From a virus, in the IMG/VR virus record IMGVR_UViG_3300010334_000001, positions 6,450 to 70,449 of that record: DNA of 64,000 nt. The stretch is one strand, 5' to 3'. The notes below the pieces were generated by a model. It searched no databases. It was not told the origin of the DNA and worked only from the letters and a program-made list of their open reading frames with translations. Position 1 is the first letter of the stretch. Each line of letters begins with the position of its first letter. A program made the position numbers and the translations under genes. Below are positions 4,912-28,023 of this stretch, piece by piece.

Positions 4912-5067
4912 GTGAGCGATATTCGCTTCTGGGACGGGACCGGTTGGGTCAGCCTTATAGGCCCAACCGGTCCTACCGGACCAATTTTTCAGAACGTTGA
5001 TGCAGGTTCGCCTACCAGTTCCTATGGCGGAGCTCCTGTAATTGATTGCGGAGGAGTTTCAGGCTAA
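4912..5067 (+). CDS. 51-aa mini collagen-associated protein (absent from the ORF track)
   Basis: GTG after GAGGAAG; [24 protein letters not shown]...IDCGGVSG resembles the N-terminus of the 4060 gene; its TAA overlaps the ATG of the next gene. Confidence 0.7.
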
Positions 5068-6527
5068 TGGCTGTCAAAGTTCAGTTCCGTCGAGGAACAT
5101 CAGGAGATTGGTCGGGAAGCAATCCGTTGCTTGCCGAAGGCGAAATGGGCCTTGAAACTGACACAGGAAAGTTCAAGGTCGGTAACGGTTCACTGTTGTG
5201 GAATGCGTTGCCGTATTCCTCTGGAGTGACTGGTCCTACGGGTGCAACTGGAGCGACTGGGCCCACGGGTCCTACAGGTCCTACGGGAGCTCAAGGAGTT
5301 ACTGGGCCTACAGGTTCGACTGGGCCCACGGGTCCTACCGGTGCTCAAGGAGTTACCGGTCCTACTGGTCCTACGGGTGATACTGGTCCTTTAGGTAATC
5401 AAGGTCCTCGAGGTTTTACTGGACCTACAGGTTCTACTGGTGACACGGGTCCTACGGGTCCGCAAGGCAACGTAGGTCCTACGGGTGCTACGGGCCCTCA
5501 AGGAAATCTTGGGCCGCAGGGGTACACAGGTCCGACGGGCGCTCAGGGAGTAACAGGACCTACGGGACCTCAAGGCGTTACTGGCCCGCAAGGAAATCAG
5601 GGATACACCGGTCCCACTGGTGATACGGGACCTCAAGGTGCAGCTGGTACGTCGGTCACAATTAAAGGCTCGTACGCAACGTATGCGGCGCTTGTCGCTG
5701 CTCATCCCACCGGTAGTCGAGGGGATGCGTACATTATTGATCCTGATTTGTGGGTGTGGGATGGGTCTGCTTGGCAGAACGTAGGCCAGGTTCAAGGTCC
5801 TACTGGTCCTACTGGTGCTCAAGGTAATCAGGGCGTGACCGGACCTCAGGGCGCTGTTGGAGCGACTGGCCCTACAGGTGCTGGTGGTTCTCAAGGTCCT
5901 ACTGGTCCTCAGGGTGTAACGGGCCCCACGGGTCCGACAGGTCCTCAAGGCAGCGCATCGACGGTTACTGGTCCTACTGGTCCTACGGGTGCTGCTTCAA
6001 CAGTGACAGGCCCTACTGGACCTACTGGGGCAACGGGTTTGACAGGTGCAACTGGTCCGACGGGACCTACTGGTGCGGCATCCACGGTTACTGGTCCTAC
6101 GGGCCCAACAGGTGCTGCTTCTACCGTAACCGGTCCTACAGGTCCAACAGGTCCTCAAGGAGCAGCTTCAACGGTTACGGGGCCCACTGGTCCTACAGGT
6201 GCAGCGTCTACTGTCACCGGTCCTACCGGACCTACCGGTCCTACCGGTCCTCAGGGTGCCGCTAGCACAGTGACTGGCCCTACGGGACCGACTGGTGCTC
6301 AGGGCGCTGCATCAACTGTCACGGGACCAACGGGTCCGACTGGCGCAACTGGTGCCGCTAGCACAGTAACTGGACCTACTGGTCCGACAGGTCCTACGGG
6401 TGCTACTGGTGCGGCGTCAACGGTGACAGGTCCTACAGGCCCTACCGGTGCCACTGGTGCTACGGGTCCTGCGGGTTCGTCGTCTGTTGATCCGACGGTG
6501 ACCGTGATGTTGCTGGGCGGAATGTAG
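5067..6527 (+). CDS. collagen-repeat tail fibre with Mtd_N (major tropism determinant N-terminal)-like domain
   Basis: [11 protein letters not shown]...W...[23 protein letters not shown]...WNALPY, then extensive GPTG/GAASTVT repeats. Confidence 0.85.
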
Positions 6528-11734: not shown

Positions 11735-12513
11735 GTCAGAACACTGCAGACAAGTATTCGTCGGCCGCGGCTGGTTCAGCAGTAGCGGGTGCTGCGGGTG
11801 GGTTTGCGTGGCGTAACGCTGCCAAGCGTAAGAATGCGGCTCGTGTGACAGTGGCAGAGCACGCCAATTGGCCGGCTGACCAGCGTTTGTCTGAGGTCAA
11901 TGCAGCGGCTGCCGCGGGAAAGACACGTGAGATCAGGAATCTGCGATCGGTTGCCTCTCGGCGTGAAACCCTAGCCGCCCGTACGCGCGCGCGACTTGTC
12001 CCCAAAGCAACCAAATCCAAGGTAGAGCGCTACACCGAGCCGGGCCGTTCAGGGTTCTATCCCGTGAATCGGCTTCGAGCTATGGACGCGTCTGCTGAAG
12101 GAAACAGGATGCAGGCGCGTGCGTTGGAGTTTGGCGTCAAGGCAAATCAGCGTGATTCCAGCAGGCTGGGTGCTCAAGCGGCTCATTCAAAGGCCAAGCA
12201 TGCGGCAGGGCTTAAAGACGTGGCTCGCAGTAGTCGAATGCTTCGTGCGGGACGAGTAGGGGCTCTCGCTGGTGCTGCAGGTGCTGTGGGGTTTGGTGTA
12301 GCCGCGGAGCGTTCCAAAGATCGTAAGAACAAGGCTCCAGTAGTGGAATTGAAGCGGATGCGTCCGAATGTGATTGATATGGACCGGTATCGGTCTGCTC
12401 GACCGTCTGCCGATGAACGTGGTTCCACGTTGGTTGATTTTCAGGGGTATCGCAAGCCGCTTTCGGCTAATGCCGGATCTACGTGGCTGAAGAACCACGG
12501 GAGGCAGTCGTGA
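11731..12513 (+). CDS. basic Ala/Arg-rich head-region protein
   Basis: GTGA coupling; AVAGAAGGFAW and VGALAGAAGAVGFGV segments. Confidence 0.6.
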   Translation: MSQNTADKYSSAAAGSAVAGAAGGFAWRNAAKRKNAARVTVAEHANWPADQRLSEVNAAAAAGKTREIRNLRSVASRRETLAARTRARLVPKATKSKVERYTEPGRSGFYPVNRLRAMDASAEGNRMQARALEFGVKANQRDSSRLGAQAAHSKAKHAAGLKDVARSSRMLRAGRVGALAGAAGAVGFGVAAERSKDRKNKAPVVELKRMRPNVIDMDRYRSARPSADERGSTLVDFQGYRKPLSANAGSTWLKNHGRQS

Positions 12514-14057
12514 GCATTGATTCATCAAGGCCCGTTGAGTACAACGGGTTTACTGACACGAATGGCGCTGATGATGAGTCGCTGAAGGAAGCCCTCAAGC
12601 TCGGCCCGTTTGTAGAGCTGGGTTCCACGGGTCTGCGTCGCGCCTCGGGCTATTTGGATGAGGAGTTCCTGCCTCAGTTGCGTGGCCGTAAGGCTGTGCA
12701 GATTTTCAAGGAGATGAGTGACAACGACCCGATGGTCGGTGCGCTTTTGTTCACCATCACCAATTTGATTCGTAACGTGGAATGGAATGTTAAGCCTGGT
12801 GGTAAGAGTGCTCAGGACGCTAAGGCTGCGGAGTTTCTTGAGTCGTGCCGCGATGACATGACCAACCCGTGGAGTGATTTCATTACAGAAATCCTCACCA
12901 TGTTGTCGTTTGGTTGGTCGTGGCACGAGATCGTGTATAAGCGCCGCGGCGGCATGTGGGACCGGGATCCTCGTCGCAGGTCCAAGCACAACGATGACCT
13001 CATTGGTTGGCGCAAAATGCCTATCCGCGCGCAGGAGACTTTGCTGCGATGGGTGTTTAATGATTCAGGCGACGTGCAGGCCATGATCCAGTTGGCCCCG
13101 CCTATTTACCGCATGACCACGCTTCCCATTGATCGAAGCCTGCTGTTTCGTTACCGCCATTACAAGGGCTCCCCTGAAGGCGTAAGTATGCTGCGTAACG
13201 CTTACCGGCCGTGGTACATGAAGAAGCGCCTTGAAGAGTTTGAGGCTGTGGGAGTGGAACGTGATCTTGCTGGCCTTCCGGTAGTGAAGGTTCCTGCGGA
13301 GATGCTGCGTGCGAAGGCGGGCACAGAGCAGGCGAAAGCTTTGGATGCGTTTAAGAAGATGGTTAAGAGCGTGCGCCGCGATGAGCAAGAGGGCGTTGTG
13401 TTCCCGATGGCGTATGACCAGGACACGAAGCAGCCGCTGTATTCGTTTGAGTTGATGGGTGGCGGTGGTGGCCGCCAGTTCAATACGGACGCGATCATTA
13501 AGCGTTATGAGGAGCGCATCCTCATGACGGTCCTTGCTGATTTCATTTTGGTTGGGCATCAGTCAGTTGGCTCCTACAGCCTGCACACGGACAAGACTGG
13601 CATCTTCCGTACGTCCTTGAACACGATCGCGAAGTCCATTGCAGACGTACTGAACCGCTACGCAGTTCCTCGCCTGTTTATGGTGAACGGCTGGAAGCCG
13701 GAAACGCTGCCTTATTTTGAGCCTACGGACGTGGATTCACCTGATATCGCGCAGTTGGCTGGGTTCATGCAGGCCATGGCCGGCACCGGTGTTACGTGGT
13801 TCCCGGATGGTGATTTGGAGAACTTCGTGCGTGAGGCCGCGCGTCTGCCCAAGCTTGATAAGGATCAGGTGGAGATGCGGCGCATGCTGCAGCTGCGGTC
13901 GGAAGCAACGGAGTTTGCGACGGCCAATACCGAGTATTTGATGGCCCAGAACAATCAAGCCATGGCTGCCGCTGGCCAAGACCCGATGCAGGCGCAGGGC
14001 GCTACGGGCCAGCAACAGGAATCTGGCAAAGACGAGAAGCCGGGGAGGTCGCAGTGA
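12510..14057 (+). CDS. portal protein (DUF935/Mu gp29-like)
   Basis: ELGSTGL, M.DNDPMVGALL, FGWSWHEIVYK, SPEG.SMLRNAYRPW..KK, VERDLAGLPV, GSYSL. Confidence 0.88.
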   Translation: MSIDSSRPVEYNGFTDTNGADDESLKEALKLGPFVELGSTGLRRASGYLDEEFLPQLRGRKAVQIFKEMSDNDPMVGALLFTITNLIRNVEWNVKPGGKSAQDAKAAEFLESCRDDMTNPWSDFITEILTMLSFGWSWHEIVYKRRGGMWDRDPRRRSKHNDDLIGWRKMPIRAQETLLRWVFNDSGDVQAMIQLAPPIYRMTTLPIDRSLLFRYRHYKGSPEGVSMLRNAYRPWYMKKRLEEFEAVGVERDLAGLPVVKVPAEMLRAKAGTEQAKALDAFKKMVKSVRRDEQEGVVFPMAYDQDTKQPLYSFELMGGGGGRQFNTDAIIKRYEERILMTVLADFILVGHQSVGSYSLHTDKTGIFRTSLNTIAKSIADVLNRYAVPRLFMVNGWKPETLPYFEPTDVDSPDIAQLAGFMQAMAGTGVTWFPDGDLENFVREAARLPKLDKDQVEMRRMLQLRSEATEFATANTEYLMAQNNQAMAAAGQDPMQAQGATGQQQESGKDEKPGRSQ

Positions 14058-14314
14058 CGTACCGCATTCATGAGGCGTCCCGTCGTGCTGGCGTGGGCAT
14101 GTGCGCTCTGGTGATGGAGGGTGATGAGTTCTCAGCCAATCAGTTGCTTCGCATGTACGTCACGGAGGCATCAGATCATGGGGTAGGGCTTCAAGACGCG
14201 CTTGTCATGTTGGCGAAATCAGCATGCGGTATTGCGGTTGGGCTTGCTGCTGACACGAACACAGGCACGGAGTGGTTTCATCGGGTGGGCTTGGGATTGG
14301 CGGCACGCTCATGA
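14054..14314 (+). CDS. hypothetical protein
   Basis: GGGGAGG RBS; coupled on both sides. Confidence 0.55.
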   Translation: MTYRIHEASRRAGVGMCALVMEGDEFSANQLLRMYVTEASDHGVGLQDALVMLAKSACGIAVGLAADTNTGTEWFHRVGLGLAARS

Positions 14315-16458
14315 GTAACGACCGTTTGCATGCTGCTGAGGCGACAGCTATTGGTGCAGGAATGATTGGTGGCGCGTCTGCTGCCAATTACGGCCTTGAC
14401 CGCATGTTGGAGCGTAAGAAGGTTAAAACGCCTCCTCGCGCCATTCTTCACGAGGCAAAAAGGCTTGTGCGCGGTGGCGGTAAGACTGCTGCGCATCCGC
14501 TTCATGTGCCTTATGTGGCGGGCAAGGTGGCTACGACGTCAGTGCGCGCGGTGGGTTTGCCGCTGGCAGCGTACGGGGCGTTCAATTTGGTTTCTCCTGG
14601 GGACAGGGTTGCGCGTGTCCGCCTTAAGGATGATGTGGTGAAGCCGACGGTGCGTACGGCTACGGGTTTTGAGCAGGCTAATCGGGCTAAGTCTCGGATC
14701 AAGACCAATCGCGAGGCCCGTAAGCGCACTCAGATGGTGAAGTCTGCTTTGACTGATAAGGAATACAACCAGTTACAACATCGCAAGACAACTGGTCGAA
14801 ACATCTCTCTTGCAGCAGGAACAATGGGGCTAACAGCGTTGAGTTTGCGCGCTCCTGAACTTGCTAGAGCCACGTCAAAGGTCCCTCGCGTTGGTAAGTT
14901 GAAGGTTTTGCAGAATCTTGCTCGACGAGAGAAGGGCGCCACACAAGCATCCAATGCGCTGGGTATTGCCGCAATTGGTACGGGAAGCGTCGGGTCATTC
15001 AACTATGCCGCGCAGCAGAAGCTTGAGCAGAAGAAGTTTGCCAAGGGACTGCCGAGAGTATTGAAAGTTCCCAACACAAAGAACCTAGATCGGCGGTTGC
15101 AGCATTATGCCCAAGTCCCGGCAAATGATTACGCACTTCGTCGTATTGAGTCGGTGCGCAACGGCAGGTCGATTGCGCGAAACATGAGCAGGAAGGGCAC
15201 TCCGAATATTGAAAGTCTGGAGCCGTTTGATCGCACAAAGTTGACGACAGCCCGACGATTCCGTACACAGTCGCGAAATGCTCTTGCTGGTAAGCCGTAT
15301 TCGGGTCCAGAGTCTGGGCAGTACAAACGATGGAATCCGGTTGCTAAGGCTCAACTGCCCTTGCCGGGTATGCCAGACAAGCCTTTGCGCGCTTTGCGTA
15401 CCGGTAAGCGAGTGTGGGTGAGTCCTGTGGGTCGTCAAGAGGTAGTGACTGATCACGGTCCTACCGTTAATGGGTTGCACAAGATCACCCGGCTTCATCC
15501 AAAGACAGGTGCGGAGACTGCTTATGTCACTGATCCTAAGAAGCTTGGGGCGTGGGTGAAGTTTGGTAAGTCTGCTGCGTGGGAGCGTGCTGCGGGTAAG
15601 AACCCTAAGGGTGGTTTGAACGAGAAGGGCCGGGAGTCGTATCACGCACAGACGGGCGGGACGCTGAAGGCTCCGGTGAAGTCGGGTGACAATCCGCGTC
15701 GGGCGTCGTTCTTGGCTCGGATGGGCAATATGCCTGGCCCAGAGTTCAAGCCCAATGGTGAACCGACACGTCTGTTGCTGTCTCTTCGTGCGTGGGGTGC
15801 GTCAAGTAAGGACGATGCTCGACGCAAGGCGAAGGCTATTTCTGGGCGTGATGGTGTGGGTAAGGCGTTGACGAGTGAGCAGAAGGCTCGTGCGAAGGCT
15901 CGTGCGCGTGCGGCTGGTCGGCCGTATCCGAATGCTTTTGACAACATGGTGGCTGGTGGCGCGCCGTGGCGTAAGGGCGTGCACAAGGCTGATGATCGGT
16001 TTTTGAGCAAGTATCGGGAGAGGATTTCTCCTGAGGCCGAAGCCGGATACAAGTATTTGAAGAGAGGCCGTAACCGGGCTACCGGTAATGCTGCACTAAA
16101 TGCTGCACTTACGCCCATTAATGCTCATGCCGCAGTTAACGGGTTCCGTCACGGTGGCAAGGCGGGTGTTGCGTGGGGCGCAACAGGTGCGGGTTTGACG
16201 GCGTTGACGGGCATGGGTGCGGTTACACAGGGACGTAAGGCTGTCCGTTGGGACAAGCGGATGGCCGGTATTGAATCAAAGGCTAAAGAGCGCGCTGCTG
16301 CTGGCGTGTACGGCCGTGGACGTGTGGTGGAAAAAGGGCTGATTCCGGTGATCAAGCCGCGTATCCCTTTGGCTGCACGTAAGCCGGCTATTAGATCGGG
16401 TCATGTCGCCACGAGCGTTCTTGGCCGCAAATACACCGTTCGTGGATCAGTGAGGTAG
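14311..16458 (+). CDS. large, highly basic modular head protein containing a DUF6321-like domain
   Basis: SAAWERAAGKNPKGGLNEKGR...KAPVKSGDNPRRASFLARMG...LSLRAWG module at 15571-15840; modules bounded by x-x-K-[SAG] motifs. Confidence 0.65.
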   Translation: MSNDRLHAAEATAIGAGMIGGASAANYGLDRMLERKKVKTPPRAILHEAKRLVRGGGKTAAHPLHVPYVAGKVATTSVRAVGLPLAAYGAFNLVSPGDRVARVRLKDDVVKPTVRTATGFEQANRAKSRIKTNREARKRTQMVKSALTDKEYNQLQHRKTTGRNISLAAGTMGLTALSLRAPELARATSKVPRVGKLKVLQNLARREKGATQASNALGIAAIGTGSVGSFNYAAQQKLEQKKFAKGLPRVLKVPNTKNLDRRLQHYAQVPANDYALRRIESVRNGRSIARNMSRKGTPNIESLEPFDRTKLTTARRFRTQSRNALAGKPYSGPESGQYKRWNPVAKAQLPLPGMPDKPLRALRTGKRVWVSPVGRQEVVTDHGPTVNGLHKITRLHPKTGAETAYVTDPKKLGAWVKFGKSAAWERAAGKNPKGGLNEKGRESYHAQTGGTLKAPVKSGDNPRRASFLARMGNMPGPEFKPNGEPTRLLLSLRAWGASSKDDARRKAKAISGRDGVGKALTSEQKARAKARARAAGRPYPNAFDNMVAGGAPWRKGVHKADDRFLSKYRERISPEAEAGYKYLKRGRNRATGNAALNAALTPINAHAAVNGFRHGGKAGVAWGATGAGLTALTGMGAVTQGRKAVRWDKRMAGIESKAKERAAAGVYGRGRVVEKGLIPVIKPRIPLAARKPAIRSGHVATSVLGRKYTVRGSVR

Positions 16459-16467
16459 GGGCAGGCT

Positions 16468-19400
16468 ATGGGCGTGCTGAGTGTTGTGTCGAAGGTCTTC
16501 CGTGAGGATGAGGAGGCTGGTTCTGCGCTGGTGGAAATGGTGGTTTATGACTACCTGACTGATCTGGCAAAGCAGTATCGGCCCGTGTTTGACGCGGTTG
16601 TGGGCCCGTGGGCTTTGGATCGTGTGCAGGTTGCTAAGCGTCAGCTTGCTCGAGGTTACGTATCGAAAGCGGTACAGGGGACGTATCCGGATGAGGAAGT
16701 ACAGCAGGTTGCCCAGTGGCTTGCTGGTCTGGAGCAATTCCTTGTGGCTGCCGTGGAGCCAGAACCTGTGGGCAAGGCGTTTGAGTGGTGGACGTTCAAT
16801 GGAAACAGTCAGCAACGGTCAGTCAACCGAGATGCTCTGGGGCGCTTTTCTCAAAGCATTTCACAGGATCCTGTAGGACGTAGCACGGCTGGACTCAGCA
16901 CGGCGGATTTGCATCCTGAGATTCGCGGGCTTGTTGACACGGACGGAAGCATTAAACCGTCTAGCCTGTCGGGCACGGCCCAAGAGCAGGCTGACCAGGT
17001 CGAGCGCATTAAGTTTGCTCAGGCGCAGTGGCAGGAAGCCGAGCAGTTCATTGGTGAACTTCAGCGAGGTCTCCCTAAAAGTGTCCGCGATGAAGCTGAA
17101 GCGACGCTGTGGGTGCGTAATGGCAATGGTCTTCGAGCCATTCGTATTCCTTTGAAGGATGTCAAGAACGGCAAGATCCCCAATCTTGGAACGCAACGCC
17201 CGGATATCACGGAGACGCTTTCTCACGTTGATATTAATCCGGGGCCTGATGCTGGCCGGGAGACGATTCAGCAGATTGCTGCTTTGAACATGTTGGGGTC
17301 GACTGGGTCAAAGGCTGCTATTGGTGTGGCAATGACTGACCGCGCCAAGTGGAATGCTTTGGCGTCGTCTCTTAATGTGGATCCGAAGTCGCGTGACTCT
17401 AAGCTGACTCGATTCTTTAATCAAATGGCTGCAGGCGGCGGTGTTTTGACGGGTGTGCCTGGTGCTGGCCAGTACGGCCGTTTCGCGCAGTTTGTGGGCG
17501 AGATGGGTCCTGAGGCAGAGAAGGTGCTGGGCCCGTACGTGCAACGTGCGGCTTATCGTTACCGGGGCACGGAGACCAGTCCGGACAAGAATCTTGTGCG
17601 CATGTTCAACGGCGCGGAGATGGGACAGGTTGATGCTCTTGCTTCGGGACGTTTTAGCCGTGAGCAGGAAGCGGCCGCCGCTGCTGCAGTGAATGGTCCT
17701 CGCGCAGCGGAGAAGCTGGGTTCGCGTCTGATGATTGACGCTGTTCAGCGTCGCCAAGAGGGTTTGACCAGTGATTCGTTGAAGATGCAGGTGCGGGCGG
17801 ATATGGCTGGCGCGGAGCTTGCCCAGACGTTGCCGAAGGATCCGATCATTGCGCGCTTGTCTCAAAAGGCGGGCACGATTCTGCCAAGCCAAGGCATTTT
17901 GATTAACGCGGACGGAAAGATTGTTTCTCAGGCTGTGGGGTATGCCGATGACCATTATTTGCCTTTTGATTTGAAGAATCTTTCGGCTTTGCGTGGCGGT
18001 CAGTTTGTGCGTACTCGTCAGGCGGGTGGCCTTACGGGCGAGGACGTGTATTCGGCTGTGACCATGGGTGCTCGGATGGTGACGGTGGTGTCTCCTTCTG
18101 GCGTGTTCACGTTGGAGATGAGCCCTGATTTCCGTGGCGCTCGAGCGATGAGTGATAAGGCTCGTGGCATGTACGACCGGTACTTGAAGATTCTTGACGC
18201 GGTTGAAGGGTCAGGAATGTACCTTGAGGATATTCCGGCTGCTGACAAGTTGAAGATTGAGCAGGATGTTAGGTCGCTTCGCTTGGATAAGGACCGCACG
18301 AAGGAACTGATTGACGAGCGGTTGAATGAGGCTCGTGAGAACGCTCAGCGCCTTAGTCCGGAAGAGATTGAGGGCATTGAGAGTGACCTTCTGGCCGATC
18401 GCTATAACGGTGCGCCGCGCGCGCGACTGCAGGGTGCTGATGCGCGACGTTTCGCTGATGAATTGGCTGAGGCTGTTGATGTTGCTCAGTCTACGAAGGC
18501 AAACAAACTGCGCCTGAATGGTCAGGGGTATGCGGTGGCGTTGCAGACTTTGCAACAGCAGTATCCGTATTTCATTCGCCGTGCTGGGTACGAGACTCTT
18601 AATGATTTTGCGTCCAAGCAGGGTCTGCAGGGGGTTAAGGGTCGCCAGTTTGCGTCTGATCAGGGTTATGTGCGCCCAGGTGGTTTGAAGGCGAACTCAA
18701 CGCAAGAGGGTTTTTATAAGCCTGCTGGTCCGCGTTCATTCAAGAGCGGTGATTCCGAATCGGTTGGTACCGGATCCGGTACCGTTCCTGCTTCGGCTGC
18801 TGCGGCAATTGCTGCTGAATCCAAGCCTAAATCGGAAAGCGCTTCGGATGCAGTTGCTCCTTTGAGCAGCCCTTTGCAGCAGCGGTTGTCTGACCGTGCG
18901 GAAGAGCTGTCGAAGGTGAGGGATAAGGCTGCGACGGATTTGGCTCACGAGTTCGGCAAAATTCCCATGGGCCTGAAGATAGACCCTAATCGGATACCGG
19001 GTAATGCCTTGACAATTATTGATGCCCTGTCAGGTACTAATACCGAGATCGTGGACTGGCTGGTGTCGCAGCCCGACAGCGATTTGAAAGACGCCATGGC
19101 TAATCCAAAGGGTTTTTTGAAATTGGTAGCGGCATTGTCGGATAGGGACGCTGTCACCTCGGTTCTTGCCAGACGCCTTTCTGAGGGCCAGGGGGTCCAA
19201 GACTTCTTTGCGGGCGGAAATGATCTTGGCGGAGCAAGAAATTACGACGACGCAGTTGAGTGGACTGTCCGCACAGCTCGTCTCGCGGCTGACGCTCAGT
19301 TGATGCAGCAGCCTTTCTCTGGCTCTCCGATTGCGGACAAGAACTCGTGGCGTGCTCCTACGGTGGATCCCATTGTGGCTGGCATTTCTGACAAGGACCA

Positions 19401-19923
19401 GTTGCTGGCTTATGCCTCAAGTGAGCCAGAGGTGTGGAATCGGGCTGTTGAACTTGCTACTGCGGGTGATGATTACGACTCTTTGACTGGTGTGGCTCAG
19501 AAGGCGCGGGAGCAATTGGCGTCTCTTGACCGTCTTGCTGACACTAAGAAGCGCGTGGAAGCCGCTCTCAATGACAAAGATCGCAAAGTCCTCCCTAAGG
19601 CGTCGGATTTTGCTGCTGAGGTTGCGCCGGCTTTGGGCAAGCCTGTGGATCAAGTCACTCTGGAAGACATTAGGAGCGTTAATCCTGATGATTTGAAGAA
19701 ACCTATTCTTGTTGCGTGGCAGTTAGCTGCGATGGGTCGGGCTCTGCAGTTTTTGGGAGAAGGTGAGGTGTTCCCAAAAGAGTCGGGCCAGCGTTGGCTG
19801 GTCAAAAAGTCTCAGAGTCGAGTCAGAGTTCTGAAGGCGAGCGACCCGTTGAGCCTGGCAGTGCAGGAGAGGGTTCGCAAGGGGATTCCGTTCGTCCCGA
19901 GCCGGAGACCTTTGACGAAATAA
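16468..19923 (+). CDS. 1151-aa head-region (probably internal/ejected) protein with a degenerate JAB/MPN-like domain
   Basis: Long ORF between portal and protease; PVGKA followed by an RDALGRF motif; LRGGQFVRTRQAGGLTGEDV...MVTVVSPSGVFTL. Confidence 0.65.
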   Translation: MGVLSVVSKVFREDEEAGSALVEMVVYDYLTDLAKQYRPVFDAVVGPWALDRVQVAKRQLARGYVSKAVQGTYPDEEVQQVAQWLAGLEQFLVAAVEPEPVGKAFEWWTFNGNSQQRSVNRDALGRFSQSISQDPVGRSTAGLSTADLHPEIRGLVDTDGSIKPSSLSGTAQEQADQVERIKFAQAQWQEAEQFIGELQRGLPKSVRDEAEATLWVRNGNGLRAIRIPLKDVKNGKIPNLGTQRPDITETLSHVDINPGPDAGRETIQQIAALNMLGSTGSKAAIGVAMTDRAKWNALASSLNVDPKSRDSKLTRFFNQMAAGGGVLTGVPGAGQYGRFAQFVGEMGPEAEKVLGPYVQRAAYRYRGTETSPDKNLVRMFNGAEMGQVDALASGRFSREQEAAAAAAVNGPRAAEKLGSRLMIDAVQRRQEGLTSDSLKMQVRADMAGAELAQTLPKDPIIARLSQKAGTILPSQGILINADGKIVSQAVGYADDHYLPFDLKNLSALRGGQFVRTRQAGGLTGEDVYSAVTMGARMVTVVSPSGVFTLEMSPDFRGARAMSDKARGMYDRYLKILDAVEGSGMYLEDIPAADKLKIEQDVRSLRLDKDRTKELIDERLNEARENAQRLSPEEIEGIESDLLADRYNGAPRARLQGADARRFADELAEAVDVAQSTKANKLRLNGQGYAVALQTLQQQYPYFIRRAGYETLNDFASKQGLQGVKGRQFASDQGYVRPGGLKANSTQEGFYKPAGPRSFKSGDSESVGTGSGTVPASAAAAIAAESKPKSESASDAVAPLSSPLQQRLSDRAEELSKVRDKAATDLAHEFGKIPMGLKIDPNRIPGNALTIIDALSGTNTEIVDWLVSQPDSDLKDAMANPKGFLKLVAALSDRDAVTSVLARRLSEGQGVQDFFAGGNDLGGARNYDDAVEWTVRTARLAADAQLMQQPFSGSPIADKNSWRAPTVDPIVAGISDKDQLLAYASSEPEVWNRAVELATAGDDYDSLTGVAQKAREQLASLDRLADTKKRVEAALNDKDRKVLPKASDFAAEVAPALGKPVDQVTLEDIRSVNPDDLKKPILVAWQLAAMGRALQFLGEGEVFPKESGQRWLVKKSQSRVRVLKASDPLSLAVQERVRKGIPFVPSRRPLTK
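19773..19803 (+). promoter_or_regulatory. programmed -1 ribosomal frameshift signal
   Basis: In-frame C CCA AAA heptamer, 6-nt spacer, hairpin GGCCAGC-GTTG-GCTGGTC. Confidence 0.75.
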
Positions 19924-20873
19924 AAGAGCGTATTAATCGGTACCCGGGGCTTAAGCCTTTGAAAAGTGAGATTGATTCCCTATATGCGCAGGCTCTTAAT
20001 GAGCAGCGCCGTGCGTCTTTGGGCCTTCCTGCATCCGATTCCACTATGCACCTTGTGTTTGCTGGTCCTCCCGGGACGGGCAAAACAACCATGGCGCGTG
20101 AAGTTGGTCGCTTGTACTACTCGCTGGGTTTGATCGACAAAGACCCGGAAACTGATGCAGGGTTTAAAGAAGTGTCTGTTCCTGACCTGATTGCTGAGTA
20201 TCAAGGCCAAACACCCCAGCGGGTGAAGGAATTGTTTGAGGGTAATGCCGAAAAAGGCATTGTTGGTGGTGCTGGTGGCGTAATCTTTATTGACGAGGCT
20301 TATGGCCTTGTGTCAGGTAAGGATGACGTGTACGGCAAGCAGGCTGTGGCTGAGCTGCTGCGTCAGGCTGAAAACCATCGCAATGACACGGTGGTGATCA
20401 TGGCTGGTTACGACAAGGAGATGGAAAACCTGTTCCAAGCCAATCCAGGTCTTCCTCGTCGTTTCCCCAAAACGTTGCATTTCACGTCGTACAACGCTGA
20501 TGAGCGGTTCGAAATCATGCGCAAGTTTATGACTGAGGGCAATTACACCATTGGTCGTGGTCGAGCGGCAGAGAACGTTCGTATGGCTATGAAGGATGCT
20601 ATTCAGGAAACTGGCAGTGGCAATGCTGGTGATGTGCGTAACTTGTGGGAGCAAATTAGGGCCGCTCAGGCGATGAGGCTTTCTTCGCTCAATATTGAGG
20701 AAATGCCGGAGGCCCGTCAGAACAGGATTTTGTCCACGATTTCGGTGGCGGACGTTAAAGCCGGTGCTCGCATGTTTGCTTCGGGCGCGCGTGTTGAGCA
20801 GCCCCTGAAGGGTTCTCTTGTTCCTATGGGTACGTCTCGTAAGAATCCGGCGAGGAAGCGCAGGGTGGCGTGA
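19794..20873 (+). CDS. AAA+ ATPase, CbbX/SpoVK/EccA type (probably expressed as a frameshift fusion)
   Basis: HLVFAGPPGTGKTT (Walker A), VIFIDEAY (Walker B), IMAGY, NPGLPRRF, GNAGDVRNL. Confidence 0.88.
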   Translation: MAGQKVSESSQSSEGERPVEPGSAGEGSQGDSVRPEPETFDEIKERINRYPGLKPLKSEIDSLYAQALNEQRRASLGLPASDSTMHLVFAGPPGTGKTTMAREVGRLYYSLGLIDKDPETDAGFKEVSVPDLIAEYQGQTPQRVKELFEGNAEKGIVGGAGGVIFIDEAYGLVSGKDDVYGKQAVAELLRQAENHRNDTVVIMAGYDKEMENLFQANPGLPRRFPKTLHFTSYNADERFEIMRKFMTEGNYTIGRGRAAENVRMAMKDAIQETGSGNAGDVRNLWEQIRAAQAMRLSSLNIEEMPEARQNRILSTISVADVKAGARMFASGARVEQPLKGSLVPMGTSRKNPARKRRVA

Positions 20874-23434
20874 ACCGTTGGTGGACTGACCCAGAGAAGT
20901 CCCGATGGGCTCTTGGGCTAGTGGGCGATACGGACGTCAGCATGGGCGTGGGTACGGCCGTGTTGGCGTATCACGGGCTTGCGCTGGAGCATTTGAGGCC
21001 GCTAGCAGAGAGCACGCTTGTTGACGGCGGTGAGTTGATTAGCCGCTTAGACAGGGTTGATTTGACTCCCGTTGCTACTGCGGTGGCAAAGGCTGTGGCT
21101 CCGGTGATGGGGGAGGCGTCTGCTTCGTACGGTCACATGTGGGCGCAGGACTTGCATGATAGGTCTTTGGGTACGAGCGTGGATTTGTTTACGTCGTTGA
21201 CGCGTTCAGGGATGGCGTTCCCGCATGCGATTGACCGGGTTATTGCGGTTCATGGGATTCCGTCGGAGCGTTTGGGTCCTGTGGCTAAGCATTTGCGTGA
21301 GCCTCGGGTTACTCCTCGAGTTCTTGATGATTACGCGGATCGCGCGCTGATGGAGTATGCGGCGTATCGGGGCAAGTTAGAGTCGAGTGACGTCACTATT
21401 TCTAAGTCTGGGGCTTTTCAAGAACGGGAACATCCTCGGGATTCGTCAGGGAAGTTCAGTGATAAGCCGTCAGCTTCTGGCGGCAAGACACCCGATAAGG
21501 CGTTTGAGGATCGTCAGGATCGCCGTGGCCGTCGCTTGAGGCGCATGAAGCGTCTGGTGGTTCAGCAGAATCAGATTGAGCAAGCTCAGCGTGAGGCTGA
21601 GAAGCTGAAGGCTTCTGCTGGTCAGAAGATGAAGCAGGTGGTGGCCCCTGTTAAGCCGAAGTTGAAGCAGCGGCCTGTGAACGCGTTGATGACGGGTTCG
21701 CCTTTTGGTGATGCGATACGCCGGCAGGCAATGGGCATGCAGCAGGCTCGTCGTCAGGCCGTGAATGAGGGAATCATTGTTGAGGAGATTCCGTTTGAGC
21801 ATACGCCTGCGTCAGACGAAGAGGTGTATGAGCAGTTGACGTCTCAGCGCTCGCAACGACTACCTGAGCATTCGATGCTGGGGGAGCGCTTTTATATTCT
21901 TACAAACGATGAGTTTGAAATGCTTGCTAGTTCAGGTGTGGACGAGTGGTCTGCGGCGGGTTTCAAAGCGCTGACAGGAAATGGCTTATACGGGTATACG
22001 GCCCAAGATGCTTTGGCTGATCTTCAAAGTCAAGTAAATGACAATTTGGCTTCTGCGGATGATTTTGTGATTCTCCGCGCCGATGGCCGTATTCCGTTGA
22101 ATTTTGGCGAGAGCCTTCATGAAGATGAGGGCAGCGGTCAGATTATTCCTGATTCTGCCATGTTGTCTTTAGGGGACGAACTCAATTTCTTTGATTACGA
22201 TGACCGTTTTCATTTGGAGCAGTACACCAACAATCCTTCATGGGGCGAAAAAGGATTACGCCCTGTCAGAGTTGTGGATATCCAGCTTGTGAATCAGAAA
22301 ATGTTTCCTTTGACAAAGCAAGACAAGGTAACCCCGCTGCGAAGGTATTCACCCAGCGACGTGGACGAAGACGGTTACCCGGGTATCTCTAAGGCCGACG
22401 CGTTCCTTGAGCGGGAACATCCACGCGATTCTGAGGGGCGTTTTAAAGATAAGGACGTTCAGCCGAAGCCTCCGGTGAATCAGGCTTTTTTGGATCGTCA
22501 GGATCGCCGGCGTAGGCGCATGAACCGCCAGGTGAAAGTGTTGGCTCAGTTAGAGCAGATTCAGCACATGCGTGATGTTCAGGCGGCTCAAGAGGCCCAA
22601 GCGCGTGAGGCAGAAAGTCGACAGGCGGCAAGGAAACTGTCAGCGTTGAAGCCTCAGGCAATGGAACGTCCGAAGAATGCGCTTGCTGCTCGCGACGCGG
22701 TGATGCAGCGTATGCGGGCTTTGGGTGCTGCTCAGGTGGCTGACGTACCAGAGGGCGCATGGGAAAGTTTGGGGGCTCTCACGTTTGATTCTGAAGATTT
22801 CTGGACTTTTTACGAGATTACTGGCGGCGATGTTGTCGGTAACAAGGTCGATGATTCTTTTGACATGACCAGCATGGCAAGCATTATGAGTGACCACGAC
22901 GACACCGAACTGTTAGCAAATAAGAACGTAACGTCTGCTAGTGACTCATTGAACAGAATTCTTCGTATTGCCCAAGTCAGCGACAACAGAATTACTAAAG
23001 TAATAAATCCTGTCAACGGGCGAAACGCGTTGTTGAGCCTTGAGGAAGCAGAAGCCGTCGCCGAAAAGGCGGCTATGTTGCTGGAAAGCAAGGATGATCG
23101 AGGAAGTCTTCAACTTCCTTTCCTTGAATACGTGAGCGAAGGCTCAAATAAAGACAATCCGGTGATGAGGGCGCGAGTATTGACGTACCCCAACGAGCCC
23201 GCCGGCTACCAAATTCTTGGCGACCCACAAGCGCTTGCCGCGCTCCAACGAGGTGACAGGCACTTACTGGATTTTGAGGATCAGAGCGTTATTGGGGCTC
23301 GAGATCTTGCTGTTCGCACAGGAAACCTTGACGAATCAGGCATCGGTTTGGAAGAAATTCCTGATCTTCCGATTGGCGTGGTGCTTGTGAAAATGAAGGA
23401 TAATGCTTCACAAAGGAGGAAAAGTGAACTCTGA
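20870..23434 (+). CDS. 854-aa minor head protein with a degenerate MuF-like N-terminus and a duplicated EHPRD module
   Basis: ISK[SA]..F.EREHPRDS.G.F.DK...AF.DRQDRR.RR occurs twice; lies directly upstream of the protease. Confidence 0.6.
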   Translation: MNRWWTDPEKSRWALGLVGDTDVSMGVGTAVLAYHGLALEHLRPLAESTLVDGGELISRLDRVDLTPVATAVAKAVAPVMGEASASYGHMWAQDLHDRSLGTSVDLFTSLTRSGMAFPHAIDRVIAVHGIPSERLGPVAKHLREPRVTPRVLDDYADRALMEYAAYRGKLESSDVTISKSGAFQEREHPRDSSGKFSDKPSASGGKTPDKAFEDRQDRRGRRLRRMKRLVVQQNQIEQAQREAEKLKASAGQKMKQVVAPVKPKLKQRPVNALMTGSPFGDAIRRQAMGMQQARRQAVNEGIIVEEIPFEHTPASDEEVYEQLTSQRSQRLPEHSMLGERFYILTNDEFEMLASSGVDEWSAAGFKALTGNGLYGYTAQDALADLQSQVNDNLASADDFVILRADGRIPLNFGESLHEDEGSGQIIPDSAMLSLGDELNFFDYDDRFHLEQYTNNPSWGEKGLRPVRVVDIQLVNQKMFPLTKQDKVTPLRRYSPSDVDEDGYPGISKADAFLEREHPRDSEGRFKDKDVQPKPPVNQAFLDRQDRRRRRMNRQVKVLAQLEQIQHMRDVQAAQEAQAREAESRQAARKLSALKPQAMERPKNALAARDAVMQRMRALGAAQVADVPEGAWESLGALTFDSEDFWTFYEITGGDVVGNKVDDSFDMTSMASIMSDHDDTELLANKNVTSASDSLNRILRIAQVSDNRITKVINPVNGRNALLSLEEAEAVAEKAAMLLESKDDRGSLQLPFLEYVSEGSNKDNPVMRARVLTYPNEPAGYQILGDPQALAALQRGDRHLLDFEDQSVIGARDLAVRTGNLDESGIGLEEIPDLPIGVVLVKMKDNASQRRKSEL

Positions 23435-24107
23435 GGTAGCAGTTGACGCGCTCATGAACGTCGATCCCGGCTTTACCCAGCTGGTCGAGACGCTCTTTGG
23501 TGATGTCGTGGACTCCCGCGAAGCCTGGGCGTACCTGTACGGGCCCAATGACGTGGTCAAGATGAGCCCCGATATGTCCTCCGTTCACGTTCCCGGATCA
23601 ATGGGCAAGGCCAAGCGCGGCCGGTTTGTGAAGAAGACCGTGGCCATGGACGTTCGTGGTATTTCGTCTCCGATGGCTAAGTCTGATCGCCCCATGGTGA
23701 CGTGGGACGTGGAATTTTCCAAGGTTGATGAGGACAAGCACGAGGTTTTTGGCTGGGCTTCTGTCGTGGAGATGGACGGCAAGCCGGTCGTGGATCGTCA
23801 GGGCGACTGGATCACGCCTGACGAGATTGAGAAGGCCGCGTACAAGTATGTTCTGGATTCCCGTAAGGGTGGCCATCAACACAAGCGCGAGGGCGACGCA
23901 GCTTTCCATGCCTCAAACATGATTGAGTCAATCGTTTTTACTCCGGAAAAGATCGCCAAGATGGGTCTTCCTGAGGATTTCCCTGTCGGTTGGTGGGTTG
24001 GTTACAAGGTTCATGACGGCGAGACGTGGAACAAGGTCAAGTCTGGAGAAGTGACGGGTTTTTCCATTCATGGCTCGGGTAAGCGTGTCCAGGTAGGGCA
24101 GGCGTGA
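23424..24107 (+). CDS. XkdF-like prohead serine protease (core)
   Basis: VFGWASV...VVDRQGDWI..DEIEKAAY.Y, GHQH, GWWVGYKV.D..TW.KVKSGE.TGFSI.G; AGGAGG RBS. Confidence 0.88.
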   Translation: MNSEVAVDALMNVDPGFTQLVETLFGDVVDSREAWAYLYGPNDVVKMSPDMSSVHVPGSMGKAKRGRFVKKTVAMDVRGISSPMAKSDRPMVTWDVEFSKVDEDKHEVFGWASVVEMDGKPVVDRQGDWITPDEIEKAAYKYVLDSRKGGHQHKREGDAAFHASNMIESIVFTPEKIAKMGLPEDFPVGWWVGYKVHDGETWNKVKSGEVTGFSIHGSGKRVQVGQA

Positions 24108-24108
24108 C

Positions 24109-24393
24109 ATGTTTCCTAATGGCGACGCGGTGAGCGTGGGTAAGGCGGATCAGGTGAAGGACCTGCCTATTCCTGAATGGGCGCGTACGTCGTTTTCTAC
24201 AAGTCATCCTGCTGTGGCTAACCCACTGGACATGTACGCAGGCGCCCGCATGATGGCGTTTGGCGGAAACAATATGCGGGGAAAGATCAACTGGCCTTGG
24301 CGGCGTAGCCGCATGGTGCGTGGTGCGCAACAGTACGTGCAAGGCCGGGCAACGGTGTATTCACCCATTGGTGAGGGTAGGGGATCGTTGTGA
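24109..24393 (+). CDS. hypothetical basic protein
   Basis: ORF coupled to the next gene; SVGKA motif near the N-terminus. Confidence 0.5.
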   Translation: MFPNGDAVSVGKADQVKDLPIPEWARTSFSTSHPAVANPLDMYAGARMMAFGGNNMRGKINWPWRRSRMVRGAQQYVQGRATVYSPIGEGRGSL

Positions 24394-25499
24394 GTTCTCA
24401 ACCGGCCAAGGGCCAGTCCAAGGGTGAGTTGAAGACTGCTCGTACGTTGAACACTGTCGCGATTATTGGCGCGACCCATCCGATGTACACGGCTGCGCGT
24501 AATTTGGCATCGCAGGCTCCGGAGGGTGTTAAGGCGGCTGCTGGCCGGTTTGTTCCTAAGAAGGCCGTGTCGGCTGTTCGCGGTGGAGTTGATCGGGTGG
24601 TGACTCGTAATCCTGGTACGAAGGCTGCGGCGAAGTTTGCGGCTAAGCACGGGAAAGTTGCTGGCGCTGCTGCCGCGACGGGGTGGTTGGGTTTTCATGG
24701 TGCTGAGCTGGCGGGTGACGTGTTGGGCCGGCGTAGTATTAATTCTCAGTTGAGGCAGAAGCAGGCTCAGGAGGCTGGCGTGAAAAAGGCGATGACCAAT
24801 AACCACAAGCGCATGATTGCTGGTGGTGCTTCTAGTGCAGCGCTGGGTGCCGGTGTGGGTTACTTCCTCGCTCCGGTGTTTGAGACGGATCGGGCTAATC
24901 GTGTCAAGGTTGCTCGGACAATGGGCCGGGGAGCGTTTGGTGCTAAGAACATGAAGGCGTTTGAGCGGGCTGAGCGGGCAGCGTTGAGTGCTGAGATGAA
25001 GTTTGCGCCGCACAAGGCAGCAGCAACGATGTTGAAGAAGGTTCCTTCGCGTGCGCGATGGGTTGCTGGAGGCGCAGCTGCTATGGGCGCTTTTGGCGCT
25101 AAGTCAGCCGTTGCTAAGTCGATTGAGCAGTCGTTTATGTCCAAGGCGGAGACCGCTCCGGTGACAGGTCACGGGACTAGTATCGAGAAGCGATACTACG
25201 ACTCTGAAGCGGACCGTCAGCGCCGTATTGGTATGGCTACGGGCTTGCTGGGTGGTACGTCAATCGTGACCGGTGCTGCTGCCGCTAATGGTGTAAAAGC
25301 CGAGCGTGGATTGAGTGAGGCCGCTGGCGGAGCACGGCGTGCTGGTGTGCAGGCCGGTTACCTGATTCCTAAGGGTGCGAATGCAAAGAAGGTTTTGGGC
25401 CGCAAGGCTGGTTTGGCAGCGGTTGCTGCCGCCTCGGGTGTGGGTGCGGTGGCGTCATATAAGCGCGGTATTTCTCGCCGTAATCAAACTTGGCAGTAG
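24390..25499 (+). CDS. basic Ala/Gly-rich modular head protein
   Basis: Several glycine-zipper-like segments; VKKA, VAKS and MSKA motifs. Confidence 0.6.
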   Translation: MSSQPAKGQSKGELKTARTLNTVAIIGATHPMYTAARNLASQAPEGVKAAAGRFVPKKAVSAVRGGVDRVVTRNPGTKAAAKFAAKHGKVAGAAAATGWLGFHGAELAGDVLGRRSINSQLRQKQAQEAGVKKAMTNNHKRMIAGGASSAALGAGVGYFLAPVFETDRANRVKVARTMGRGAFGAKNMKAFERAERAALSAEMKFAPHKAAATMLKKVPSRARWVAGGAAAMGAFGAKSAVAKSIEQSFMSKAETAPVTGHGTSIEKRYYDSEADRQRRIGMATGLLGGTSIVTGAAAANGVKAERGLSEAAGGARRAGVQAGYLIPKGANAKKVLGRKAGLAAVAAASGVGAVASYKRGISRRNQTWQ

Positions 25500-27042: not shown

Positions 27043-28023
27043 ATGCCGTCTCCATCACAGTCAGATCTACACGTCAACGTTCCGTTGACCAACGTGTCGA
27101 TCGCTTACATGCAGTCTTCGGCTGCTTACATTTCGGACAAGATCTTCCCAAAGGTCCCTGTCCAGAAGCAGTCTGACCTGTACTGGCGTTACAGCAAGTC
27201 CGATTGGCGTCGTACCGACGTTGCCCGTCGCGCTCCTTCGACTGAGTCCAAGGGCGTCGGCTGGACGATGGACACTGATTCGTACTTCGCCCACGTGTAC
27301 GCCGTACACAAGGACATTGACGATCAGCTCCGCTCGAACGCTGATTCCAATTTCAATCTGGATCGCGACGCTACCGAGTTCATCACCAACCAGATGCTGC
27401 TCAAGCGCGACATCGACTGGAACTCTAAGTTCTTCGCTCAGTCGGTGTGGAATACCCAGTACGAGGGTGGCGATGACTTCACTAAGTGGAGTGACGCTGG
27501 CTCGAACCCGGTGCAGGATGTGGCTAACTGGGTGCTTCAGTTCCGTCGCGAGACGGGCTTTGCCCCCAACAAGATGGTTCTTGGCGCTGAGGTCATGCTG
27601 TACCTCAAGCAGCACCCAGACATCATCGACCGCATCAAGTACACCCAGAAGGGCATCGTCACCGAGGACCTGATTGCGACGCTGTTCAACATCGAGCAGA
27701 TCTACACCTCGTACGCGACTGTCGCCACGACTCCGCAGATTCCGGACGCTAAGGCTCAGGATGCTGCTGCTTCGTACGACTTCATCGCTAACTCCAAGTC
27801 GATTCTGCTGGCTTACGCGCCTGCGGGACCGTCGCTGATGACTCCTTCTGCTGGTTACACGTTTACGTGGAACGGCTACCTCGGCGGCAACGCTCAGGGG
27901 ATCCGCGTGAAGCGTTTCCGTATGGAGCACATTGCGTCGGATCGCGTTGAGTCGGAGATGACCTACGACATGAAGGTTGTCTGCCCGGATCTTGGCATCT
28001 TCGCTTACAACGTGGTCGAGTAA
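27043..28023 (+). CDS. major capsid protein (lambda gpE-like family)
   Basis: LHVNVPLTNVSIAY...IFPKVPVQKQSD.Y; strongly C-ending codon bias; position after scaffold and cement. Confidence 0.88.
   Translation: MPSPSQSDLHVNVPLTNVSIAYMQSSAAYISDKIFPKVPVQKQSDLYWRYSKSDWRRTDVARRAPSTESKGVGWTMDTDSYFAHVYAVHKDIDDQLRSNADSNFNLDRDATEFITNQMLLKRDIDWNSKFFAQSVWNTQYEGGDDFTKWSDAGSNPVQDVANWVLQFRRETGFAPNKMVLGAEVMLYLKQHPDIIDRIKYTQKGIVTEDLIATLFNIEQIYTSYATVATTPQIPDAKAQDAAASYDFIANSKSILLAYAPAGPSLMTPSAGYTFTWNGYLGGNAQGIRVKRFRMEHIASDRVESEMTYDMKVVCPDLGIFAYNVVE

Follow-up and report, generated by a model that had tools for sequence, protein, structure and literature searches.

How does a phage come to express an ATPase whose reading frame opens inside the end of another gene? 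The question is raised by a stretch of 64,000 nucleotides (nt) of viral DNA from the IMG/VR record IMGVR_UViG_3300010334_000001 (record positions 6,450-70,449; hereafter the window, with coordinates counted from its position 1). In this stretch an open reading frame (ORF) of 1151 amino acids (aa), placed among head genes, is overlapped at its end by a second ORF, listed with a TTG start, for an AAA+ ATPase of the CbbX/EccA/SpoVK type. The second ORF is in the -1 frame of the first because 16468, where the giant ORF begins, is position 1 mod 3 and 19794, the TTG, is 0 mod 3; the coordinates and frames that the initial annotation of this DNA gave for the two match the ORF list. The evidence argues for a programmed -1 frameshift near the end of the 1151-aa head-module gene, which would produce a fusion of the giant protein with the ATPase, and the probability of this reading is put at roughly 0.85.

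According to this explanation, ribosomes decoding CCA-AAA at 19774-19779 would slip back by one base onto CCC-AAA, and the slip would be promoted from upstream by a Shine-Dalgarno (SD)-like stretch and from 6 nt downstream by a hairpin. Without a slip, the ribosome would finish the 1151-aa protein with its conserved basic tail; after a slip, it would read a flexible linker and then the complete ATPase, giving a fusion of ~1468 aa. The slip would be the main or only route of expression of the ATPase, since the latter appears to have no credible start of its own. From the position of the gene and by analogy, the giant N-terminal part may, in the manner of Gag and Pol, bring sub-stoichiometric amounts of the ATPase into the head during assembly. 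Head or cargo proteins may be its substrates there, or the host may receive it. The initial annotation had proposed that the fusion makes up a fixed fraction of the head protein and that it could be a virion-packaged ATPase for remodelling or ejection, which are likewise possibilities.

The slip site and its conservation

The slip site is composed of several elements (Table 1). The heptamer C CCA AAA, in phase with the codons of the giant gene, is followed after a short spacer by a hairpin, which RNAfold returned with the same stem at -13.1 kcal/mol for a 30-nt window, and the TTG at 19794-19796 from which the ATPase nominally starts sits in its loop. A purine stretch resembling an SD sequence, GGGAGAAGGTGAGG, precedes the heptamer, and the -1 frame is open from 19767 to 20873. 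Frame 0 ends with ...GEGEVFPK at residue 1104 and the -1 frame resumes at residue 5 of its translation, so that the predicted trans-frame product has 1104 + 364 = 1468 aa. The initial annotation had claimed the in-frame heptamer, the 6-nt spacer with the 7-bp hairpin, the SD-like stretch, the TGA followed by a frame open through the AAA+ region, a TTG in the hairpin loop with no good ribosome-binding site, and a fusion of about 1,470 aa with its junction peptide; each of these was recovered, the pairing upstream of the TTG being weak and the computed junction agreeing. The pattern CCCAAAAG matches four times in the 64 kb against 2.6 expected, and as it is not rare in the window, its single occurrence is unremarkable and the argument rests on phase and conservation rather than on occurrence. 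A natural variant, G>A at 19785, the last spacer base before the stem, leaves the heptamer and the stem unchanged; it is present in the contig of a variant strain and in a viral contig of 89% identity (L002, 9325 region).

Related loci were gathered from viral and metagenome contigs and were all scored by tblastn. The AAA+ gene beside the giant gene was in the -1 frame in 35 of 35 locus rows, the loci being related, so that this and the later counts, those for the hairpin and the SD-like stretch included, are not independent events or trials. Removal of duplicates left 27 distinct junctions, which fall into 21 clusters when the best-conserved core is grouped at 70% identity and into 15 when it is grouped at 60%, with a median pairwise core identity of 46%. 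An in-frame C CCA AAA was found in 26 of the 27, and the remaining one (L030) has an in-frame C CCT TTC at the homologous place, followed by a hairpin of its own. The conservation of an in-frame heptamer at the homologous place in all 27 distinct junctions is, from these alignments, far beyond chance. One further relative (L006/L027) has the in-frame heptamer too, on a contig that stops short of the ATPase. In 14 of 26 loci, 3-12 nt separate the opening of the -1 frame from the heptamer. Scans of genome contigs with the queries A1 and A2 returned no relatives, nor did the first metagenome scan with A1; viral-contig scans aimed at two variant groups gave none for A2 and only an N-terminal fragment (L026) for A3.

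The bases around the heptamer bear on the alternative that no frameshift occurs, in which case the ATPase would be made separately from an internal start or by re-initiation and the heptamer would be kept only since Pro-Lys matters in the giant protein. Gene callers do list two separate ORFs. However, the codon before the heptamer is represented in the 26 loci by nine codons for nine amino acids, every one of which ends in C, and L030 exchanges the heptamer for another slippery heptamer, not for another spelling of Pro-Lys. The base following the heptamer is G in 26/26 loci, and Pro1103 and Lys1104 are nearly invariant among 78 aligned homologues, amid a poorly conserved C-terminus. The junction pattern thus has the appearance of a constraint on nucleotides, not on residues, and an ATPase made without any frameshift is very unlikely.

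An error of sequencing or assembly, or a pseudogene whose true form is one in-frame ORF, might be suspected from the in-frame versions that exist in distant relatives (see below). The chance of this is practically negligible, as the same -1 arrangement recurs in the 27 distinct junctions from separate assemblies and the frame-0 tail is itself conserved as protein. Contigs from four other runs, one of them from a variant strain with 12 substitutions, have no insertion or deletion across 19600-20100, a comparison that cannot reveal rare variants.

The stretches flanking the heptamer were compared with windows of the same giant gene. For the hairpin, the 30 nt from 4 nt past the heptamer were set against all 30-nt windows of the gene, and in 22 of 26 loci this stretch ranked within the 10% of highest stability (median fraction 0.017). 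The hairpins begin 4-8 nt past the heptamer, with stems of different sequence between loci. Mononucleotide shuffles of the 45 nt that follow the heptamer gave a weak z-score (mean -0.77), which is superseded by the same-gene control. For the SD-like element, the 20 nt ending 3 nt before the heptamer were compared with 20-nt windows of the same gene; its pairing energy was in the lowest 10% in 25 of 26 loci (median fraction 0.007), as scored with an assumed 16S 3' tail, which may not be that of the host.

Slippage of RNA polymerase on the A run would yield the same protein as slippage of the ribosome. Known transcriptional slippage sites need much longer runs than four A's, and the run here has only four, replaced by three T's in L030. 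The conserved X XXY YYZ phase, the spacing of the hairpin and the SD-like element fit a ribosomal mechanism instead, which leaves the polymerase a highly improbable agent.

The ATPase, its start and the overlap

The -1 ORF is predicted to encode a complete AAA+ ATPase of the CbbX/EccA/SpoVK clade, with predicted activity. Pfam assigns AAA (3e-19) and AAA_lid_6 (3e-07) to it, and among solved structures it is closest to CbbX (3syk, E 1.8e-39, over residues 50-344 of the -1 translation) and to EccA1 (9lur, 6.4e-35). Walker A, the pore-loop Tyr, Walker B and the NPG..RF region were located and are conserved in 24 aligned relatives, in agreement with the initial claim of an intact CbbX/SpoVK-type ATPase with Walker A, Walker B and arginine-finger region. 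The module shares its AAA and AAA_lid_6 domains and conserved motifs with CbbX (the red-type Rubisco activase), EccA1 and SpoVK, but it has no Rubisco, ESX or sporulation context here and would be tethered to a phage head-module protein. When compared alone with GenBank phages, the ATPase matched only unrelated AAA+ genes (Mycobacterium phage Adler, Bacillus phage G, Brevibacillus phage Emery). In Adler (L004, 8011-9912) the match is a 633-aa EccA-like AAA ATPase among hypothetical genes, 31% identical to the window module; no homologue of the giant protein was detected beside it.

Residue 50 of the -1 translation is where the homology to CbbX sets in, and the frame-0 stop falls at about residue 52; because the one starts about where the other ends, the overlap would encode only a linker in the -1 frame. 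Four start candidates alone exist in this frame of the window, namely TTG 19794, TTG 19959, TTG 20019 and ATG 20046. ATG 20046 is not a credible start because it lies deep inside the CbbX-aligned region, 6 codons before Walker A. The ATPase of the window thus seems to be without a credible start of its own.

Several observations weigh against the frameshift, in addition to the relatedness of the loci and the assumed 16S tail mentioned above. A Met that is conserved in many relatives stands 41 residues ahead of Walker A, 10-20 codons past the frame-0 stop, and it is possible that re-initiation at this Met gives some amount of free ATPase in these relatives. Four of the 78 homologues (P0037, P0038, P0042 and P0049), known from protein sequence alone, have W-D-L-K-E-G instead of x-P-K at the slip position. 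Frame 0 continues for 47 codons beyond the slip site, more than at many known frameshift sites. There were no RNA runs among the listed holders of the window stretch, and no relatives in GenBank phage records by megablast of the region or tblastn of P0049 and P0001, that is, no cultured relative.

The conserved Met favours two of the alternatives. For an ATPase made without a frameshift it would provide an ATG soon after the frame-0 stop; however, the window lacks that ATG, and the starts it does have either score weakly for SD pairing (-1.8 to -5.0), sit within the hairpin loop or come just 6 codons ahead of Walker A. The Met is also absent in at least five other loci, and it belongs to a conserved helix; in the window and several other loci Leu, Ala or Tyr stands in its place. 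In the second alternative both routes operate, the slip giving a minor fusion and most of the active ATPase being free, either by re-initiation or by proteolytic release from the fusion. Such a division is unlikely, though by no means negligible. It would agree with the Met in many loci, with a head protease gene 2.5 kb downstream and with a linear motif on both sides of the ATPase in one locus (L039), but the window is without the Met, and two in-frame fusion lineages indicate that a fully tethered ATPase is viable.

The overlap itself carries a further sign of -1 translation. When the overlap is read in the -1 frame, 15 of 26 loci contain L-[VAI]-P-T-G (18 of 26 by a looser pattern), usually as G-x-L-V-P-T-G, and the same bases read in frame 0 give a widely varying peptide. 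In 12 of the 15 motif loci there is no ATG, GTG or TTG upstream of the motif in the -1 frame, and therefore only ribosomes arriving from frame 0 could translate it; a conserved motif ahead of any start codon is difficult to accommodate without a frameshift. A six-frame scan of 14 loci found the motif elsewhere only twice, once within a different ORF of L009, spelt I-A-P-T-G, and once in the L039 ATPase, at its C-terminus. Of 929 differences past the overlap, 502 are at third positions of the -1 frame; within the overlap, substitutions are spread over the phases and are rarer, 0.27 per site vs 0.44 in the 300 nt upstream (both from 13 pairs, with some loci reused). As the frame-0 tail past the slip site and the -1-frame overlap are each conserved as protein, both the short and the fused product look functional.

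The motif is not confined to the linker. Together with basic residues, G-x-L-V-P-[TM]-G is present either in the linker (18 of 26 loci) or in the C-terminal tail of the ATPase (the window, L028, L033, L039 and L041), and in L039 it stands on both sides of the ATPase. The window has GSLVPMG near the C-terminus of its ATPase, resembling the linker motif of other relatives. This peptide might serve for cleavage by a protease or for docking. Other head-module ORFs have comparable G-x-L-[VI]-P-[KR] strings close to their ends, in the 25356 region of the window (ORF 24390-25499), at about 3234 of L008 and at 12944-12968 of L039. The frame-0 context of the slip site, G-G-D/E-V-F/L-P-K, resembles these strings, and the slip site may coincide with a processing site.

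In-frame fusions, alternative modules and the carrier protein

Natural fusions of the two proteins in one frame exist in two distant lineages. L078/L081 (1451 aa) and L085/L086 (1481 aa) have a homologue of the giant protein at the N-terminus and, in the same frame, an AAA+ module with Pfam AAA and AAA_lid_6 at the C-terminus. The fusion gene is at the same position in the head module, directly after the portal gene and before genes for minor-head-like and XkdF-like protease proteins. Their existence is another point against an ATPase made without a frameshift. An alignment of homologous loci for heptamer, hairpin and in-frame fusions had been proposed in the initial annotation; it turned up all three, and the case that the annotation named as fatal to its claim, homologues without the slippery site whose ATPase initiates by itself (for example at ATG 20046), was not seen among them. 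Elsewhere fusions were not encountered. No AAA domain was present among the 82 homologues of the giant protein from a word search, and no protein of fusion length among the best 150 of 611 profile hits (350-1287 aa). A search for longer proteins from the ATPase side was crowded by bacterial tandem-AAA proteins; P0150, P0164 and P0087 from it (about 1,470-1,485 aa) were compared and are not fusions of the giant protein.

The relatives without the ATPase served as controls. Of 32 distinct relatives whose giant ORF is complete and has no AAA+ gene beside it, 28 have no in-frame CCCAAAA in the last 300 nt. The relatives with a slip site are L048, L049 and L077 (CCCAAAA) and L094 (G GGA AAA), and in all four the -1 frame continues for 193-276 codons, encoding a linker and a helical domain; Pfam gave no match for any of these four modules. 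Since the heptamer is found among the controls only with a -1 extension, it travels with such an extension, whatever the latter encodes. The four modules look like alternative cargo at the same junction, which suggests an exchangeable cargo system.

A wider reading can be offered tentatively, as possible but on balance doubtful. The slip site would be a modular cargo-attachment junction of a large family of phage head proteins, at which most lineages attach an AAA+ ATPase, and others unrelated helical domains of 190-280 aa, to a minority of carrier copies. The modules would be carried into the procapsid and perhaps into the host, with G-x-L-V-P-T-G as a release signal for the head protease or a shell-docking signal, and an unfoldase would be the main cargo of a Gag-Pol-like packaging. 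Independently of this wider reading, gene position and analogy suggest as the role of the fusion that an unfoldase would be carried into the head, possibly to be released at, or docked by, G-x-L-V-P-T-G.

The carrier belongs to a large family. The word-search homologues have 805-1236 aa and none has a Pfam domain, and the profile search expands the family to 611 representative clusters at E<=0.001. Pfam and PHROGs gave no family match for the giant protein, its profile searches against PDB sequences gave nothing and the ESM Atlas nothing usable. Its AlphaFold model has a mean predicted local distance difference test score (pLDDT) of 81.1 and places the slip site in a coil after the helix 1073-1095. 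A predicted disordered linker divides the protein into a 746-aa N-terminal part and a helical C-terminal part of ~300 aa that ends at the slip site. The conserved core, when modelled alone, reached a pLDDT of 89.3 and a predicted template modelling score of 0.83.

Structure comparisons did not assign a fold to the carrier. Foldseek and VIA-align of the whole model returned only helical-hairpin matches (best Z 7.9) with no significant fold match, and BFVD only the family itself plus weak 'minor capsid protein' rows (E 0.02-0.04). For the core, the Foldseek matches are weak and consist mostly of JAB/MPN (Rpn11, AMSH, CSN5, JAMM1) and cytidine-deaminase folds at E 0.07-0.7, with VIA-align Z 4.6 for JAMM1 and Z 5.3 for a deaminase toxin; these matches concern a beta-rich subdomain of the core. 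The metal-binding catalytic motif of JAMM proteins is made of two His and an Asp. The catalytic His pair is absent; as invariant residues the stretch concerned has D, Y, L, P, F, G, G, R, T, R, G, G, T, E and D. A minor head protein of the MuF/SPP1 gp7 type was considered and rejected, as the window protein and eight relatives have no Phage_Mu_F at E<=0.01.

Known systems and the surroundings of the locus

In tailed phages, the programmed frameshifts known so far mostly concern tail chaperones, or add a small extension to a capsid or tail protein. In dnaX of E. coli (tau/gamma) an SD-like element acts together with a heptamer that has Lys codons at its end and with a hairpin ~6 nt further on. 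The window site has this three-part signal in common with dnaX, although the dnaX slip truncates the protein, the slip here would extend it by 364 residues, and the heptamers differ. The slip heptamer of Lactobacillus phage A2 is said to be C CCA AAA as well, also by the initial annotation. The A2 frameshifts in the head and the tail gene are both reported to be -1, with an essential head product (PMC5009743). A2 resembles the window in its -1 slip near the end of a phage structural gene that gives a longer second product; however, the A2 extension is a small structural domain on a major capsid or tail protein, and here a 320-aa enzyme would be placed on a non-capsid protein of 1100 aa.

Likewise, the conserved -1 slip of lambda G/GT sets the ratio of short to long product in a phage morphogenesis gene (PMC5009743). 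The window site is similar as a conserved -1 slip in a morphogenesis gene with a short and a long product, but it lies in the head module and not between tail genes, its products are about ten times larger, and the long form would contain an ATPase. A tail assembly chaperone of the G/GT type, which has two short overlapping ORFs between the major tail and tape-measure genes, was ruled out, as the site is between the portal and head protease genes.

The packaging logic of Gag-Pol, described in the same source, is that a frameshift fuses an enzyme to a particle protein and a minority of copies carry the enzyme into the particle (PMC5009743). By inference, the window would share with retroviral and totiviral Gag-Pol an enzyme fused to a particle protein, with a protease gene nearby; it differs in being a tailed double-stranded DNA phage, with an AAA+ ATPase in place of a polymerase. 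For phages, the PRFect paper mentions predicted frameshifted MuF-like and VIP2 ADP-ribosyltransferase genes, which are also found as single fusion genes (PMC10885494). These MuF-like heads with C-terminal effectors have in common with the locus a head-associated carrier for variable C-terminal enzymatic modules, whereas the giant protein has no Phage_Mu_F match and its cargo would be an AAA+ ATPase or a helical module without a Pfam match. The literature searched has no description of a frameshift that joins a phage head-module protein to an AAA+ ATPase. An enzyme tied to a particle protein by frameshift is familiar from retroviruses but is not known from tailed phages.

At least 21 diverged lineages of uncultured phages have kept the signal, and at least that of the window is from freshwater; its stretch is present in freshwater metagenome runs. 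Should the fusion be made, this would be a new recoding family with a three-part signal that could be used directly in reporters, and annotation pipelines would be miscalling the ATPase as a separate gene with an arbitrary start. It would also raise the question of why an unfoldase is tied to a head protein, to which assembly, cargo loading, maturation or early infection could be the answer.

Table 1. Positions of the slip site, the overlapping genes, their motifs and neighbouring genes (window coordinates unless a locus is named).
Feature	Position	Strand	Remark
Giant head-module protein ORF, frame 0	16468..19923	+	1151 aa, ATG start; short product if no slip
Conserved core of giant protein	17395-18705	+	residues 310-746; most conserved part of the family, also in relatives without a -1 module
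Predicted disordered linker	18706-18858	+	residues 747-797; Ser/Ala/Gly/Pro-rich; AlphaFold model
SD-like purine stretch	19755-19768	+	candidate 5' stimulator
TGA, last stop of -1 frame	19764-19766	+	6 nt before heptamer
Slippery heptamer C CCA AAA	19773-19779	+	in-frame X XXY YYZ within TTC CCA AAA GAG, 19771-19782
Spacer, 6 nt	19780-19785	+	between heptamer and hairpin
Hairpin GGCCAGC / GTTG / GCTGGTC	19786-19803	+	7 pairs including one G-T; candidate 3' stimulator
Frame-0 tail of short product	19780..19923	+	47 codons + stop; basic, conserved S-x-S-R-V-x-V-L ... D-P-L-S ... V-Q-x-R
-1-frame linker, slip site to AAA+ module	19779..19913	+	Gly/Ser/Pro/Glu-rich
Second ORF as listed	19794-20873	+	TTG start; -1 frame relative to giant ORF
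CbbX/EccA/SpoVK-type AAA+ module	19914..20873	+	-1 frame; Pfam and CbbX/EccA1 matches
Walker A	20064-20087	+	AAA+ module
Pore-loop EYQG	20196-20207	+	AAA+ module
Walker B	20283-20300	+	AAA+ module
NPGLPRRF (arginine-finger region)	20442-20465	+	AAA+ module
GSLVPMG of ATPase C-terminus	20811..20831	+	resembles G-x-L-V-P-T-G linker motif of relatives
Mu-type portal gene	12483-14057		upstream of giant gene; Pfam/PHROGs
DUF6321 protein gene	14272-16458		between portal gene and giant gene; Pfam/PHROGs
854-aa ORF			directly after ATPase; GTG start
XkdF-type head protease gene	23403-24107		downstream, 2.5 kb beyond ATPase
Major head protein gene	27043-28023		downstream
2112-aa ORF	32665-39003		downstream of head genes
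Alternative -1 ORF, L048	2363-2941
Alternative -1 ORF, L049	9084-9725
Alternative -1 ORF, L077	2125-2952
Alternative -1 ORF, L094	8943-9533

The giant gene is a head-module gene by its position, because it is placed between the portal and DUF6321 genes on one side and the protease and major head genes on the other. The stop codon TGA of the ATPase overlaps the GTG start of the 854-aa ORF (GTGA, 20870-20873), which suggests translational coupling of the two; through this coupling, expression of the 854-aa ORF could depend partly on slipped ribosomes. At some distance, at 5046-6527 of the window, a collagen-repeat protein resembling a tail fibre has an N-terminal Mtd_N (major tropism determinant) domain (Pfam 8.6e-14) and might be part of a diversity-generating system.

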